From assembly GCF_965641715.1 (NCBI RefSeq), contig NZ_OZ282453.1: DNA of 64,000 nucleotides; one strand, 5' to 3'. The translations under genes were made by a program, and so were the position numbers. The first letter of the stretch is position 1. Each line of letters opens with the position of its first letter. The stretch comes from Escherichia coli (GTDB lineage Bacteria > Pseudomonadota > Gammaproteobacteria > Enterobacterales > Enterobacteriaceae). Below are positions 49,854 through 55,442 of the stretch, one piece after another. The notes beneath the pieces were generated by a model. It did no database searches, was not told the DNA's origin, and was given only the letters and a program-made list of their open reading frames with translations.

Positions 49854-50585
49854 ATGAAAAAGTTAGTTCTTGCCGCATTACTGGCATCCTGTGCGTTCGG
49901 CGCTTCTGCCGCAGAGAAAATCAATTTTGGCGTATCAGCGACCTATCCGCCGTTCGAGTCAATGGATGCTAATAACCAGATCGTCGGCTTTGATATCGAC
50001 CTGGCAAAAGCGTTATGCAAACAGATGCAGGCAGAATGTACTTTTACCAATCACGCTTTCGACAGCCTGATCCCGTCACTGAAATTCAGGAAATATGACG
50101 CCGTTATCTCCGGTATGGATATCACGCCAGATCGTAGCAAGCAGGTATCGTTTACCACGCCCTATTACGAAAACTCAGCCGTCGTGATTGCCAAAAAAGA
50201 TACCTACAAAACGTTTGCCGACCTGAAAGGCAAACGCATTGGGATGGAAAACGGTACTACGCACCAGAAATATATTCAGGATCAGCACCCGGAAGTGAAA
50301 ACGGTCTCCTATGACAGTTATCAAAATGCCTTTATCGATCTGAAAAATGGCCGTATTGATGGCGTATTTGGTGACACTGCGGTGGTTAATGAATGGCTGA
50401 AAACCAATCCGCAACTGGGCGTTGCTACTGAAAAAGTGACCGATCCGCAATACTTCGGCACCGGCCTGGGTATCGCTGTACGTCCGGATAACAAAGCTCT
50501 GCTGGAAAAACTGAATAACGCGCTGGCAGCAATTAAAGCTGACGGTACATATCAGAAAATCAGCGATCAGTGGTTCCCGCAATAA
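49854..50585 (+). CDS. artJ: Arginine-binding periplasmic protein ArtJ
   Basis: 243 aa from MKKLVLAALLASCAFGASA; SD gggag upstream. Confidence 0.93.
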   Translation: MKKLVLAALLASCAFGASAAEKINFGVSATYPPFESMDANNQIVGFDIDLAKALCKQMQAECTFTNHAFDSLIPSLKFRKYDAVISGMDITPDRSKQVSFTTPYYENSAVVIAKKDTYKTFADLKGKRIGMENGTTHQKYIQDQHPEVKTVSYDSYQNAFIDLKNGRIDGVFGDTAVVNEWLKTNPQLGVATEKVTDPQYFGTGLGIAVRPDNKALLEKLNNALAAIKADGTYQKISDQWFPQ

Positions 50586-50595
50586 TTATTCATTT

Positions 50596-50622
50596 GCCGG
50601 AGTGGGCGAACACCCACTCCGG
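50596..50622. terminator. Hairpin between convergent artJ and the sulfatase gene
   Basis: gccggagtggg-cgaaca-cccactccggc, an 11-bp perfect stem. Confidence 0.6.
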
Positions 50623-51861
50623 CAAAATCACTTCTCTACGCTAATCCCAGGCGCTGAAACTGCTCTGGCGGCGCATCATTATCTTTCATCAACTGAATCA
50701 GCAACGCGATCATCCGGGACTCGATCACATCATCATGAATCGGATGTAGCTGCTGCGGATCGTTTTGCAGATCAAACAGCAAATGACCAAACTGATTCAA
50801 CCCCTTATATTTTTCCTGTGCCGGGATGCGTAATACCTGTAACCCTTTGGTAAAACGAAACGGTGGGGCCAGCGATAAAGCCCGCATCTCATCCACCGGA
50901 TAGCGGCTGTTCATTTTGCAGGACATCAACGTGTAGTTGGCAATATCATCCTCACGCCCCGGCAGCGCTGCACGCATATACACATAACGCCCATCAGTTA
51001 CGTTAGCATGACCACTGAAAACACCAAACATCGCCGAGCTGCGTACTGGTTCATCGTGACTGACCGTTTTCGCCAGCGGTTGCCCCTGCACATCGGGCGG
51101 CACTGGCTGTTGAAAAAAGTCATACAACGTTGGCGCCCAGTCGATCATTTGTACCAGTGCCTGTCGCCGCTCTCCTTTTACACCACTGCGCGGGTCCCAG
51201 ATAAACAACGGATTATTGGCAACTTCGTTGTAATAAGGCATCTGGTTTTTCGCCCACCAGCCATGCTCACCGAGTAAAAAGCCGTGGTCAGTGCCGACAA
51301 TCAGCATGGTATCTCGCCACAGATCGTGCTCATCCATCAGGTCGAGAATGCGCCCCAGGTTGCGATCGCACATCGACACCAGCGAACGATACCGGCAACG
51401 GATGTGCTCCACGGCCTCGTCGCTTTCCTGCACCCGGCCACGCGGCCAGTCATAATGCGGTCCATCCCAGTTATCTTCATACAAGGAAAGATACTCTTCC
51501 GTTGTGTGAAACGGCTCGTGCGGATCAAACGTTTCGATCTGCAATAACCAGTTATCTTCCGCGTGATTTTTGTGGATAAAGGCACAGCCTGCATCAAACA
51601 CTTTAGTTTGTGGAAAATCTGCTTCCTGCTGAATATATTCCCGGTTTGCCCAGTCATGGCGCCACAGACCAGAAACACCGCCACCGGTCTGCTTTTGCGG
51701 CACCCGTAGCACCTCGGGAATAGGCGGTTGCGCAACGCTTGCATGCCAGTGATCGCCTTCCTGTCCGCGCACAATCTCCCACGAACTGTAGCGATTATGA
51801 TAATTCCCGCCGCCATCTTCCCAGTAATGCAAATGATCGCTTATCAGGTGGGTATAGATCC

Positions 51862-53200
51862 CATAAGCGCTAACTTAAGGGTTGAACCATCTGAAGAATG
51901 CGACGCCTCGGTGCCTCGTTAAGACGATGCCTCGCGTTCTTCAATTGCGTTTTGTAGGCTGTCAGGGATACTGTCCCACGAATGGCCACCTGTAAGCTCC
52001 AGATGACCATTTTTGTTATTCTCCACAACGAGTTAGTTCTTCTTTTCGGATCCGGCACTTCTGGGGGGGAAATCCAGCGATGGCTGGATTATGTCGTCAA
52101 TTAAAAATGCGGCGAGTAGATTAGCAAATATCCACGCTTTCGCGAGTTCAGGTTCCTTTGCACGCAAAGCATCCAGGTGCAGCAAACTTTTGAGCCGCTT
52201 AAAAGCCAGTTCAATTTGCCATCGCAGACGGTAACAATCAGCCACTTGCTCTGCTGAATATTCATCTTCCGGTAATGATGTTAGCAATAGCACATGGCCC
52301 GCTGCTTCCAGCGTTTCCGCCTGAACTACTCGTCCTTTTCGACGATTCTCGCTGAGCAGTCGGGTTTTACTGATTAATGCTTTTTCGGGAGGAAGTGATA
52401 CGGCAATGAGACGTGCCGGAAAGGGAGCTCCGGCTTTTTTATTACCTGAATTGCCTATCATTACAGTGGTTTCACCGTTCTTACCGCAATCCAGCCCGCG
52501 CAGAAAACCCATCATGTCAAAGCGCATTCCTTCTGCAGTTAACCAGCGCAATCCTCGCCAGTGAACCCGGACGATATAATCAGCTTCTCCAAAAGCAAGT
52601 GAGCGGATACATTCGGGACGCGAACCGAATCCCCGGTCAGCAATGCGTATCTCGTCTGCCGTTTGCGCAAATCGGTCCAGCCGTTCAGCGTCTCTGCTGT
52701 CGGTTAGCTCAAAATCAGTGAACTGACAGGTATGAGGATCATATCCCATATGTAGTCGCCATTCAGCGCTGCCGCCCCCGGGCGCACTGATTGCTGTTCC
52801 ATCGACAAGACGCAATCTCTTTCCGCTTGTACAACCCGTAACTGCGGCGCGTACAGCAAGTGTTTGTGCGGCAAGTATGCCAAACCAGTCGGCGGCATTC
52901 CGCAGCCGCTTCAGGAGAGCCACGTCAGATAATGTTGCAACGTCATGGAGCTGAGCCCATGCAGTGACTTCACGTAATGACATCCCCCCGGGGCCGTAAG
53001 CCAGCCCCAGACGTAGCAGAGTTGCAGCATCACGAATTTCGCGGCGGCGGGTTAGAGCCCCGGCATTACGTGCCGAAGTATCCAGTTCTTCGGGCTTACC
53101 AATATGGGCCAGAATTGCTGACCAGTTATCGTGAGAGTAATTCATCGGCACGTTAAATCATATCAGGCGTAATACCACAACCCTTAAGTTAGCGCTTATG
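51862..53200 (-). mobile_element. IS186 (IS4 family), complete copy with 23-bp terminal inverted repeats and a 10-bp target-site duplication
   Basis: Terminal repeats cataagcgctaacttaagggttg / caacccttaagttagcgcttatg; flanking direct repeat gtatagatcc at 51852-51861 and 53201-53210; target context ggg...ccc. Confidence 0.9.
52033..53145 (-). CDS. insL: IS186 transposase (DDE, IS4 family)
   Basis: 370 aa from MNYSHDNWSAILAHIGKPEELDTSARNAGALTRRREIRDAATLLRLGLAYGPGG..., matching the IS186 transposase. Confidence 0.9.
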   Translation of the reverse strand: MNYSHDNWSAILAHIGKPEELDTSARNAGALTRRREIRDAATLLRLGLAYGPGGMSLREVTAWAQLHDVATLSDVALLKRLRNAADWFGILAAQTLAVRAAVTGCTSGKRLRLVDGTAISAPGGGSAEWRLHMGYDPHTCQFTDFELTDSRDAERLDRFAQTADEIRIADRGFGSRPECIRSLAFGEADYIVRVHWRGLRWLTAEGMRFDMMGFLRGLDCGKNGETTVMIGNSGNKKAGAPFPARLIAVSLPPEKALISKTRLLSENRRKGRVVQAETLEAAGHVLLLTSLPEDEYSAEQVADCYRLRWQIELAFKRLKSLLHLDALRAKEPELAKAWIFANLLAAFLIDDIIQPSLDFPPRSAGSEKKN

Positions 53201-53477
53201 GTATAGATCCCCGCCTTTTTAAGCAGCTCCGGCATGGAATCGTCAAACGGTTCTAACGGCCCCCACTCCCGATGCAGGAAGTTACATCGCCCGGTATGCA
53301 ACTCCCGCCGAGCAGGCATACACGGCATACTGCCGACGTAACTGTTTTCAAAGGTGGCGGCATGAGCCGCCAGACGTTGGAAATTAGGCGCTTTGGTTAA
53401 CGCATCGCCATAAGGTGGCAGATAACGTTTATTCAGACTATCGAACAGTAGAATAATCGCTCTCATTACGCCCTACC

Positions 53478-53798
53478 TTATTGATTAATTAAATGCGGAA
53501 AATGTTGCTGAACCACTTCATAAATTTGCTGACCAATAGTTTCACCGTCCATAATATTCTCTATCGGAATCAAATATTGCCCTTGTTTCGGGTCAAGACT
53601 AACCACATCGAGTAATTTTTTGGAAATAGCAAAAATATCCGCCCAGTCGGTAAATCCGCCGACTTCACCTGCGGCGGTATGTTCCATTTCAACTTTGAAA
53701 TCATATTTGGTCAGCGCTTTTTTAACGACCGTTTGTAACATAACGCTACTGCCTACACCGTAACCACAGACAAACAGAATATTAATTGTATCTTTCAT
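53478..53798 (-). CDS. PTS EIIB component (ascorbate/galactitol-type PTS_IIB fold)
   Basis: 106 aa; N-terminal phospho-cysteine loop ILFVCGYGVGSS. Confidence 0.8.
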   Translation of the reverse strand: MKDTINILFVCGYGVGSSVMLQTVVKKALTKYDFKVEMEHTAAGEVGGFTDWADIFAISKKLLDVVSLDPKQGQYLIPIENIMDGETIGQQIYEVVQQHFPHLINQ

Positions 53799-53819
53799 TT
53801 TTAAACCCTTAATATTTAA

Positions 53820-55163
53820 TTAACCCGCGTAAGGACCAAGATGGAATGTTGCAGCGATAAATTTCAGAACTTCACAAATAGCAGGCCATACGGTTGCCCA
53901 GTCAAATATTCCTGTCCAGCCGACGCCATTTTCAGCAAGCCCGGTTAACGGAATAGCCCACACCGTACCGAAGGTCTGAATAATACCCAGCAAGAACGTA
54001 CAGATAATTACGGAACGGTATCCGCCCATGCGGTTTGCTAATACGCCAATTGGACCGCCAGAGAAAAACAGAGGTACAAAGCCAGGCAATACCATAATTG
54101 GGCTGTGAACCAGTAATAAGATCCCCATCGAAAAAATGGTGCCAAAAGTACAGAAGACGAAGCCTAACGTTGCGGCATTGGGTGAAAAAGGCAACAGCGC
54201 GGCGACATCGACGGCGGGAATGGCATTAGGAATAAAGCGATCCTGCCAGCCTTTAAACGAACCGTTAATTTCGCCCACCATCATGCGCACACCCTGCAGC
54301 AAAATGACCATATACATGGAGAACTGTAAGCCAAGGTTGATGATATAGATGTACCAGGGCTTGCCTTTCGCCATTAACTGGACATTATCGATACCCGTTG
54401 ATAGCAAGAAACCACCGACAAACAGCGTCATCACAATGGCGATAGCCGTTACGTTATGGTTAAAAATCGCCAGCCACCCGGGGAGTTTCAGGTTTTCAGC
54501 ATCGTGCTTTTCGGGGTCACCAAATTTATGGGCGAATTTGGAGAAAAACCACAATCCCAACATCTGGTTATGAGCAATGGTAAAACCGGCATCTTTGGTA
54601 ACTTTGGCAATGGGCTTAACAATGAGCGTGGTGGAGAACGCCCAGAATACACCCGTTAATATTCCGGCAATAATAATGGATGTAGTCCAGCTAAAACCCA
54701 GCCAAAAGACAATCAACCATAATACCGCCTGAGAATGTGAAACACCGGTATTCCCTGTCAAAAATATCCCTTTGGCACCAGTATACCGACCAAATAATAC
54801 CAGCAGCAGGTTGGTAAAAAACGCCAGTACAAATACATAACCGACATAACCAAAATTATCCCCCAACGCAATTTGCGTTGCCGCTTTCATTGCGTAGGAA
54901 TCCATTAAATATCCGTGAACACCATAGGCTTTACTTACGGCTTCTGCTACCGGTTTAAATGTTGCGGAAAACTGGAAACCACCAAATAACACCATCATTA
55001 ATCCCACCATGGCGCTGACCATGCCGGTAATAATTTTTATTGGCGATTTCTTATCAAGGGCATAACCAATACCCACCAGCAAACCAATTAAAATTGCCGG
55101 TTCAGTTAAAAACGTTTGAATAACATCTATGAATTTGGCAAACATCGTCGGAACGCCCTCCAT
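53820..55163 (-). CDS. PTS EIIC component, L-ascorbate (UlaA/SgaT) family
   Basis: About 445-aa polytopic membrane protein; segments such as LKLPGWLAIFNHNVTAIAIVMTLF resemble UlaA; start may be the second ATG (MFAKFIDV). Confidence 0.8.
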   Translation of the reverse strand: MEGVPTMFAKFIDVIQTFLTEPAILIGLLVGIGYALDKKSPIKIITGMVSAMVGLMMVLFGGFQFSATFKPVAEAVSKAYGVHGYLMDSYAMKAATQIALGDNFGYVGYVFVLAFFTNLLLVLFGRYTGAKGIFLTGNTGVSHSQAVLWLIVFWLGFSWTTSIIIAGILTGVFWAFSTTLIVKPIAKVTKDAGFTIAHNQMLGLWFFSKFAHKFGDPEKHDAENLKLPGWLAIFNHNVTAIAIVMTLFVGGFLLSTGIDNVQLMAKGKPWYIYIINLGLQFSMYMVILLQGVRMMVGEINGSFKGWQDRFIPNAIPAVDVAALLPFSPNAATLGFVFCTFGTIFSMGILLLVHSPIMVLPGFVPLFFSGGPIGVLANRMGGYRSVIICTFLLGIIQTFGTVWAIPLTGLAENGVGWTGIFDWATVWPAICEVLKFIAATFHLGPYAG

Positions 55164-55353
55164 AAGCGTACATTTCCGTTGTCAATGCATGAACCTTCTG
55201 CTGACGTTAATAATGTCTCAGGAAATTTTGTGTTTCGCTAAGCAATGCCTCTGTATGTATTCGGTAAGTGCACTGTAGTAATCAAAACAGTTCAATTAAA
55301 GATCTTATTTGATTATTTGTGATTTGATTTGCAAAAATAGAGCAATATATAAC

Positions 55354-55389
55354 CGTGATCGATCGGTTATTATTAATCGATCGATCACG
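55354..55389. promoter_or_regulatory. GATC-rich perfect inverted repeat upstream of the PTS-sulfatase operon and downstream of rlmC
   Basis: cgtgatcgatcg-N12-cgatcgatcacg (12-bp arms), containing four GATC Dam sites. Confidence 0.5.
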
Positions 55390-55442
55390 ATTATTATTTT
55401 GAGTGAATAGTTGTTGCCGAAAAATTTACTGCCGTGATGTAT

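Follow-up and report, generated by a model that had tools for sequence, protein, structure and literature searches.

We analysed the window, a stretch of 64,000 nucleotides of the Escherichia coli contig NZ_OZ282453.1, whose coordinates are used throughout and whose genes were called as open reading frames (ORFs). Between artJ and rlmC it carries three minus-strand genes that encode an EIIC and an EIIB component of the phosphotransferase system (PTS) and a sulfatase (Table 1); ORFs and Pfam matches agree with the boundaries and strand given to these genes in an initial annotation of the same DNA. Because the spacers between EIIC and EIIB (21 bp) and between EIIB and the sulfatase gene (11 bp) are short, the three genes are taken to form one operon, hereafter the cassette. 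Comparative data lead to a specific hypothesis, which we favour somewhat over the alternatives taken together, namely that the cassette would extend the Ula (L-ascorbate) PTS pathway by a desulfation step in the cytoplasm.

The cassette locus and its disruption by IS186

No EIIA, regulator or sulfatase maturase was found at the E. coli locus, either among the window ORFs or in annotated relatives. In K-12 MG1655, rlmC lies directly next to artJ, and the 198-bp spacer between them contains repetitive extragenic palindromic (REP)-like palindromes (L093 4647-4844), in keeping with the statement in the initial annotation that K-12 lacks the locus. When K-12 is compared with positions 50586-55442 of the window, similarity ends exactly at both stop codons, that of artJ included. 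The artJ gene is convergent with the sulfatase gene, and the hairpin between them is a probable bidirectional terminator.

Table 1. Features of the artJ-rlmC region in window coordinates
Feature	Coordinates	Strand	Basis
artJ (arginine-binding protein, flank)	49854..50585	+	ORF; position matches annotated artJ in L001, L012, L093 (K-12)
G+C-rich hairpin GCCGGAGTGGGCGAACACCCACTCCGGC between convergent artJ and sulfatase genes	50596..50623	.	Read from sequence
Sulfatase gene, whole span including IS186	50636..53466	-	ORFs; 493 aa once the insertion sequence (IS) is removed
Sulfatase 3' part (about codons 90-493 and stop), severed from the start by IS186	50636..51861	-	ORF and reconstruction
Target-site duplication, left copy GTATAGATCC	51852..51861	.	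Repeat search and reconstruction
IS186, 1339 bp, 23-bp perfect terminal inverted repeats	51862..53200	-	100% identity to K-12 IS186A
IS186 transposase ORF	52033-53151		NCBIfam IS4-family model NF033592, 133 bits (cut-off 115)
Target-site duplication, right copy GTATAGATCC	53201..53210	.	Repeat search and reconstruction
Sulfatase 5' part (codons 1 to about 89), with Asp9 and the C49-M-P-A-R53 formylglycine motif	53201..53466	-	ORF, alignment
PTS EIIB, 106 aa, putative phospho-Cys11 in LFVCGYG	53478..53798	-	Pfam PTS_IIB
PTS EIIC, L-ascorbate (SgaT/UlaA) family, 447 aa	53820..55163	-	Pfam EIIC-GAT, NCBIfam NF009550
Non-coding region upstream of EIIC (cassette promoter/operator, rlmC end)	55164..55442	-	Blocks conserved between E. 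coli and Salmonella (alignment)
Perfect 12-bp inverted repeat CGTGATCGATCG-N12-CGATCGATCACG between rlmC and EIIC	55354..55389	.	Sequence search
rlmC (flank)	55443..56570	-	ORF and annotation

The element within the sulfatase gene has all the features of IS186: identity to the IS186A annotated in K-12 over its whole length, exact terminal inverted repeats, a 10-bp target-site duplication and an IS4-family transposase. Deleting it in silico together with one GTATAGATCC duplicate restores the reading frame and yields the 1482-bp gene and the 493-aa protein of intact strains; positions 50636-51861 joined to 53211-53466 encode a protein identical to WP_001201595 (L001). Since the reconstructed gene differs from that of intact strains by only three synonymous bases and the protein is identical, the insertion at about codon 89 is, on this reconstruction, the sole lesion and a recent one. 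Because IS186 splits the sulfatase gene, the cassette is inactive in this window, as the initial annotation had stated. IS186 is absent from this site in all 5426 complete E. coli genomes of the collection, where the flanks (window 50400-55700) reach 99.3% identity at best; the source strain is therefore not one of these RefSeq genomes. IS1 interrupts the EIIC/EIIB genes of the same cassette in two other E. coli (NZ_CP024147, NZ_CP083585); together with the IS186 case, this means that the cassette has been knocked out by insertion sequences independently, more than once.

The transporter subunits and the sulfatase

The EIIC protein matches Pfam EIIC-GAT (PF03611) at 5.5e-97 and the NCBIfam equivalog NF009550 with 964 bits (cut-off 583). 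Beyond NF009550, its best NCBIfam hits are the ascorbate EIIC and EIIBC models (321-354 bits, under their cut-offs), and it aligns at full length with K-12 UlaA (39% identity over 432 aa, E=1e-100). The EIIB protein, which matches Pfam PTS_IIB (PF02302) at 1e-10, is 29% identical to K-12 UlaB, its Cys11 aligning with the UlaB cysteine in the VCG motif. Its sequence places EIIC in the PTS L-Asc family, outside the UlaA orthologue group. None of the loci in E. coli, Salmonella and Enterobacter encodes a cognate EIIA of the PTS_EIIA_2 type, and the EIIAs encoded in cassettes of Bacillota have the ascorbate EIIA model as their best NCBIfam match (102-104 bits, under the cut-off). E. coli has a complete ula regulon.

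The sulfatase matches Pfam Sulfatase (PF00884) at 2.5e-28 and also SGSH_C. Its N-terminus, MRAIILLFD, is the first beta-strand of the catalytic domain, which begins at residue 3 and has its metal-binding aspartate at position 9, so that no room is left for a signal peptide. In an alignment of 18 relatives, C49, P51, A52 and R53 of the motif C49-M-P-A-R53-R-E-L-H-T-G-R are invariant, as are Asp9, His95, His200, Asp277-His278 and Lys290; the initial annotation was right both about the Cys-type CMPAR signature (residues 49-53) and about the missing signal peptide. An unusual invariant segment, NFLHREWGP, follows the formylglycine motif, and R54, H57, R60, H65 and R66 likewise count among the invariant positions. 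The AlphaFold model of the protein has a predicted local distance difference test (pLDDT) value of 72.7, with low values in the active-site loops. All top Foldseek matches of this model in the PDB are S1 sulfatases (probability 1.00, template modelling score about 0.6, at most 19% identity), and they are generic ones that give no hint of the substrate. Domain, fold and motif all assign the enzyme to the S1 sulfatases, from which it deviates at one catalytic position.

Relatives of the cassette, linked genes and distribution

Relatives of the sulfatase occur in at least 594 species genomes. We retrieved 80 genome loci, comprising a non-PTS group of 65 (sulfatase 51-59% identical to the E. coli protein) and 15 loci with a sulfatase at least about 60% identical to it. 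Hosts of the non-PTS group include Paenibacillus, Actinomycetota, Chloroflexota, Planctomycetota, Lokiarchaeota and some Proteobacteria, and PTS genes lie near the sulfatase in none of its 65 loci; the neighbours there are CUT1 sugar ABC transporters, FGE, anSME, GH3 enzymes and two-component/AraC regulators. Identities of 51-59% between sulfatases without signal peptides across Bacteria and Lokiarchaeota amount to unusually strong conservation.

The gene order EIIC-EIIB-sulfatase is found in 13 of the 15 closer loci; in one of the other two EIIC-EIIB lies downstream of the sulfatase, and one (L018, Clostridiaceae) has no visible PTS. Most further metagenome loci examined share this order. Cassette genes in the relatives overlap or lie 4-12 bp apart, with overlaps between EIIB and sulfatase genes among them. 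The order recurs in Bacillota and Actinomycetota, where the parts missing in E. coli do occur: a PTS_EIIA_2 protein is encoded next to the sulfatase in Bacillota, and cassettes of both phyla contain a DeoR-type or SorC-type regulator. In two protein clusters (P0044, P0083) EIIA is fused to the sulfatase C-terminus, a Rosetta-stone link.

Linked genes were tallied over 26 non-enteric PTS-linked loci; these include six from a metagenome scan, on short contigs where ula genes are within reach in none (0/6), and leave out L018. Seven of the 26 have an adjacent maturase gene, encoding either anSME (NF010321, 487 bits) or FGE (PF03781, 8e-80), and the wider sulfatase family shows the same genomic association in over 20 loci. 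Anion exporter genes, either TauE or pairs of half-size CHR-family proteins, adjoin the cassette in 8 of the 26. The EIIA fusions, maturases and anion exporters of the relatives say, as far as gene context goes, that the enzyme is a true formylglycine sulfatase, cytoplasmic, which would act on the PTS product and release sulfate there. PTS import followed by cytoplasmic desulfation is highly probable in our estimation. The initial annotation had proposed this order of events, and the sulfatase::EIIA fusions, EIIB/sulfatase overlaps and adjacent maturases and exporters back it; its expectation that a locus lacking EIIA, regulator and maturase must draw on parts encoded elsewhere agrees well with relatives that carry exactly these parts.

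In 6 of the 26 non-enteric loci, from four families and two phyla, the cassette is joined to ula genes. Neobacillus niacini (L017) has EIIA-EIIC-EIIB-sulfatase-UlaG-EIIB'-UlaD-UlaE-UlaF on one strand, with a divergent FGE gene, and Clostridium sp. (L027) has UlaG-EIIA-EIIC-EIIB-sulfatase-x-UlaF-UlaE followed by transketolase and transaldolase. The remaining cases are Bacillus sp. SD088 (L007), Bacillus sp. FJAT-50079 (L025), Olsenella sp. An285 (L022) and Oscillospiraceae (L026). The NCBIfam assignments in L007 are above the cut-offs: 644 bits against 306 for UlaG (L-ascorbate-6-phosphate lactonase), 329 against 250 for UlaD (3-dehydro-L-gulonate-6-phosphate decarboxylase), 432 against 200 for UlaE (L-ribulose-5-phosphate 3-epimerase) and 354 against 257 for UlaF (4-epimerase); the EIIC of L007 matches the same equivalog, NF009550, as that of the window. 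By chance, a single-copy gene is expected in a random 20-kb window in about 0.5% of cases. Among catabolic genes, only ulaG/D/E/F together with transketolase and transaldolase adjoin the cassette repeatedly; nag, aga, gal and glycosidase genes do not recur beside the PTS-linked cassettes examined.

Several neighbourhoods hold further genes of note. The 65%-identical sulfatase of L018 lies beside GntR, an IolO-like epimerase and a transketolase. A conserved protein of about 340 aa (345 aa in L027) is encoded beside the sulfatase in these Clostridia loci with ula or transketolase genes (L027 6290-7327, L018 4140-5159), and it has no match in Pfam or NCBIfam. An arylsulfate sulfotransferase (PF05935) adjoins the cassette in Enterobacter hormaechei (L095/L096 4466-5881); in a Lachnospiraceae genome (L010 14515-16383) it is accompanied by a SorC regulator and another EIIC-GAT/EIIB pair, and L106, L115 and L116 are further loci that bear it. 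Its adjacency would fit aryl or enol sulfate chemistry and is counted in favour of the substrate proposed below. The ula operon of Bacillus sp. FJAT-50079 contains a second, distant EIIC-EIIB-sulfatase triplet (L025 4692-7908) directly upstream of the main one, with an EIIC of 34% identity and a sulfatase of 463 aa; the two triplets suggest two related sulfated substrates. In L098 (219-7154) a mannose-family PTS (EIIAB, EIIC, EIID), another sulfatase, GntR, anSME and TauE adjoin the cassette, and this Man-type module is, by its gene content, a separate PTS-plus-cytoplasmic-sulfatase system.

Among enterics, the cassette (EIIB-EIIC DNA and sulfatase gene) is present in 566 of the 5426 complete E. 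coli genomes, always as a single chromosomal copy, and carriers include O157:H7 (Sakai ECs_0940-0942) and O145. Thus intact copies, which the initial annotation recommended looking for, do exist, and the sulfatase gene is full-length in all 566 carriers, which we count as a sign of selection. There are two E. coli allele classes, one at 99% identity or more (411 genomes) and one at about 91% (155 genomes), both at rlmC|artJ. This divergence, over the whole cassette, seems above the expectation for E. coli core genes and suggests either that the polymorphism is old or that an allele came in from another Escherichia lineage. The Salmonella enterica sulfatase orthologue (86% protein identity) belongs to a cluster of 4238 member sequences. 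The rlmC|artJ site also holds the cassette in Salmonella, including subsp. arizonae, and in a genome of an Escherichia cryptic clade, while that of Enterobacter hormaechei is located elsewhere. The Salmonella genes are STM0884-0886 and bear generic annotation only, as do those of enterohaemorrhagic E. coli (EHEC), Enterobacter and gut Bacillota. Since Salmonella, the cryptic clade and both E. coli alleles share the site, the simplest history is that the cassette was ancestral in the Escherichia/Salmonella lineage and was lost in K-12-like E. coli; a recent insertion appears less likely, which makes the word "inserted" in the initial annotation doubtful.

The region upstream of EIIC contains the palindrome listed in Table 1. 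In Salmonella a symmetric change, G>A in one arm and C>T in the other, affects both of its arms, and it could be an operator for some regulator or a terminator hairpin of rlmC. A motif shared between the cassette upstream region and the regions upstream of ulaG-ulaA and of ulaR was sought, and only AT-rich collinear similarity (AATCAcAAATAATC, TGTTtTGATTACT) was found. A UlaR operator upstream of the cassette was therefore set aside as a lead rather than evidence, the similarity being no better than that of shuffles; the papers found do not give the UlaR operator sequence. Inside the EIIC ORF, at window 54127-54144 on the minus strand, lies a sigma-54-like sequence, TGGCACCATTTTTTCGAT, which has three mismatches to a site in Salmonella STM0884; 7 of 100 shuffles contain a match as good by chance. 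The Salmonella site is an intragenic RpoN chromatin immunoprecipitation site reported within STM0884 (PMC3844500).

Candidate substrate and pathway

An ascorbate-family transporter and six genomes with cassette and ula genes joined favour a sulfated ascorbate over a sulfated hexose, and we lean towards this substrate. The compound concerned would most likely be L-ascorbate-2-sulfate, the natural, stable isomer, which is hydrolysed by arylsulfatases A and B (human ARSA/ARSB). It is a routinely measured metabolite of mammalian plasma and urine.

In the route that we propose, the L-ascorbate-family EIIC/EIIB would import the sulfated ascorbate and phosphorylate it at O6, as UlaABC does with ascorbate, so that the sulfate should sit at another position. 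EI, HPr and an EIIA from another locus would deliver the phosphate; because the cassette EIIAs of Bacillota match the ascorbate EIIA model best, UlaC is the natural candidate in E. coli. The cytoplasmic sulfatase, its Cys49 first converted to formylglycine by a maturase that would likewise be encoded elsewhere in E. coli, would then strip the sulfate to leave L-ascorbate-6-phosphate, and the freed sulfate would be assimilated or exported. L-ascorbate-6-phosphate serves UlaG as substrate and, as the inducer, makes UlaR let go, so that it would switch on the resident ulaG/ulaABCDEF genes, whereupon UlaG, UlaD, UlaE and UlaF would convert it to D-xylulose-5-phosphate. We infer the substrate, the order of steps and the action of UlaC and UlaR in trans. 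The conversion of L-ascorbate-6-phosphate to D-xylulose-5-phosphate is summarised in PMC5934670, and ascorbate-6-phosphate is the effector that releases UlaR.

Several points weigh against this reading. The substrate is read solely from gene neighbourhoods, and no literature evidence was found on the quantity of ascorbate sulfate in the gut lumen. Twenty of the 26 non-enteric cassettes and all the enteric ones lack nearby ula genes, although a product that feeds into a pathway with genes at another locus would make stand-alone cassettes without catabolic genes the expected case. In L007 and L017 the cassette EIIC/EIIB supplies the only EIIC of the ula cluster, so that there it may carry plain ascorbate also, or only that. 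The similarity of the upstream region to the ulaA promoter lies within the range of shuffled controls and is not significant. The closest solved relatives of the sulfatase by sequence are, weakly, carbohydrate 6-O-sulfatases and choline sulfatases; the wider, non-PTS sulfatases are linked to sugar ABC transporters and GH3 enzymes. Finally, alignments with PDB hits and with relatives place the invariant Asp94 where the canonical GKxH lysine is expected, and the chemistry of the enzyme could differ from that of textbook sulfatases.

Some of these points lend themselves to another substrate, a sulfated hexose, hexosamine or glycoside (sulfated N-acetylglucosamine (GlcNAc) or galactose derived from mucin or glycosaminoglycans, or a glucosinolate), which the PTS would bring in and the cytoplasmic sulfatase would turn into a common sugar phosphate. 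In its favour, the top PDB hits by sequence are GlcNAc-6-sulfatases (7p24, 5g2v; weak and partial), the wider sulfatase family is tied to CUT1 transporters and GH3 glycosidases, and most cassettes stand alone, so that they could yield any sugar phosphate of central metabolism; gut and airway Bacillota also have modules that pair a sulfatase with a Man-type or Lac-type PTS (L098; PMC3302838). Against this stand the transporter, which is of the L-ascorbate family and not of the hexose- or hexosamine-carrying Glc, Man and Lac families, the recurrent catabolic genes, which are ulaG/D/E/F, transketolase and transaldolase with no nag, aga, gal or glycosidase genes, and the fact that O6 is not free for PTS phosphorylation in 6-O-sulfated sugars. 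We consider such a substrate unlikely, though it is the strongest of the alternatives. Glucosinolates had been considered because sinigrin is degraded by O157:H7 (PMC6767122), and were rejected as the leading candidate since the PTS family and the ula linkage misfit a thioglucoside. The sulfated sugar of the initial annotation survives as a sulfated PTS substrate, whereas its examples (sulfated GlcNAc or galactose, sulfoquinovose) fit poorly, and the UlaA-type EIIC and the six ula-linked genomes refine it to a sulfated ascorbate.

It is less probable still that EIIC/EIIB carries plain L-ascorbate or a close analogue and that the sulfatase is co-transcribed but uncoupled, for example in scavenging sulfur from aryl sulfates in the cytoplasm. 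EIIC is a clear UlaA homologue, and the two ula clusters in which the cassette supplies the sole EIIC (L007, L017) would suit this view; however, the strict EIIC-EIIB-sulfatase order, the gene overlaps and the sulfatase::EIIA fusions point to one pathway, and E. coli, Salmonella and Enterobacter own UlaABC, yet retain the extra pair only with the sulfatase. An uncoupled sulfatase would also need its sulfate esters to enter the cytoplasm otherwise, and we know of no other route that brings them there. The possibility that the "sulfatase" is instead another hydrolase of the alkaline-phosphatase superfamily (a phosphatase, a phosphodiesterase or a phosphonate-monoester hydrolase) that would cleave a phosphate ester made by the PTS seems to us very remote. 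NCBIfam and PDB matches to PehA and phosphonate monoester hydrolases, a faint Pfam Phosphodiest match and Asp94 in place of the canonical lysine speak for it, but the relatives show no variation in the formylglycine motif or the other catalytic residues, FGE/anSME and TauE/CHR exporter genes adjoin the gene in many relatives, the fold matches are all to S1 sulfatases, and removing phosphate from a PTS product would be futile.

If the sulfated ascorbate pathway holds, three generically annotated genes of Salmonella, EHEC O157:H7, Enterobacter and many gut Bacillota would gain a function, a sulfatase step would join the textbook ascorbate pathway, and the PTS would be shown to handle sulfated substrates. 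We give about even odds to the broadest form of the claim, that no earlier PTS pathway handles a sulfate ester and no earlier route of L-ascorbate-2-sulfate catabolism is known from bacteria, and that the cytoplasmic formylglycine sulfatases which would feed UlaG/D/E/F make up a new and highly conserved subfamily. The comparisons define a large, strongly conserved family of cytoplasmic sulfatases with no characterised member among those found. They also touch the old question of the maturase for Cys-type sulfatases in the E. coli cytoplasm, as the cassette brings none itself. The hypothesis is cheaply testable by growth and enzyme assays, the compound being commercially available.

Among the closest known systems is the E. 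coli UlaABC-UlaG/D/E/F pathway (transporter classification 4.A.7), with which the cassette shares a homologous EIIC and EIIB, a PTS_EIIA_2 type of EIIA and DeoR-type regulators like UlaR in the relatives, the joining to ulaG/D/E/F in six of them, and the predicted end product, L-ascorbate-6-phosphate. It differs in that its EIIC belongs to an equivalog of its own (NF009550), that a sulfatase gene is always attached, that in E. coli it is without an EIIA, regulator or catabolic genes of its own, and that its predicted substrate is sulfate-esterified. With S1 sulfatases such as BT4656/BT3177, BetC and ARSA/ARSB the enzyme has in common the Pfam domain, the fold, the C-x-P-x-R motif, the metal-binding Asp and Asp-His, the catalytic His and Lys and, in its relatives, adjacent FGE/anSME genes; in contrast to them it lacks a signal peptide, has Asp94 and NFLHREWGP, is coupled to a PTS and is at most 19% identical to solved structures. 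The ats2 cluster of Bifidobacterium breve is reported by Egan et al. (2016) to combine an intracellular sulfatase, an anSME and a transporter for GlcNAc-6-sulfate. Its logic is the same, with intact import, cytoplasmic desulfation and anSME maturation, but the ats2 transporter is an MFS secondary transporter for an amino sugar, whereas the cassette has a phosphorylating PTS and linked ascorbate genes.

The initial annotation called the pairing of a PTS with an intracellular sulfatase a non-textbook one. In the literature, of which our coverage is incomplete, we found no functional study of these genes and no use of ascorbate sulfate by bacteria; the pairing is nevertheless not unique, given the Man-type module of L098 and a Lac-type one in Streptococcus pneumoniae, both uncharacterised. 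A survey of ula regulons (PMC3219644) makes passing mention of a sulfatase in the Sebaldella ula regulon and treats it as "inserted". The S. pneumoniae genes SPH1922-1929 (PMC3302838) encode a Lac-type PTS, a sulfatase, a sulfatase-modifying enzyme and a TauE exporter. Like the cassette, this locus pairs a PTS with a cytoplasmic sulfatase, and its maturase and TauE-type exporter have counterparts in relatives of the cassette, but it has a Lac rather than an L-Asc PTS, a different sulfatase and a ComA-like sulfolactate synthase among its genes.

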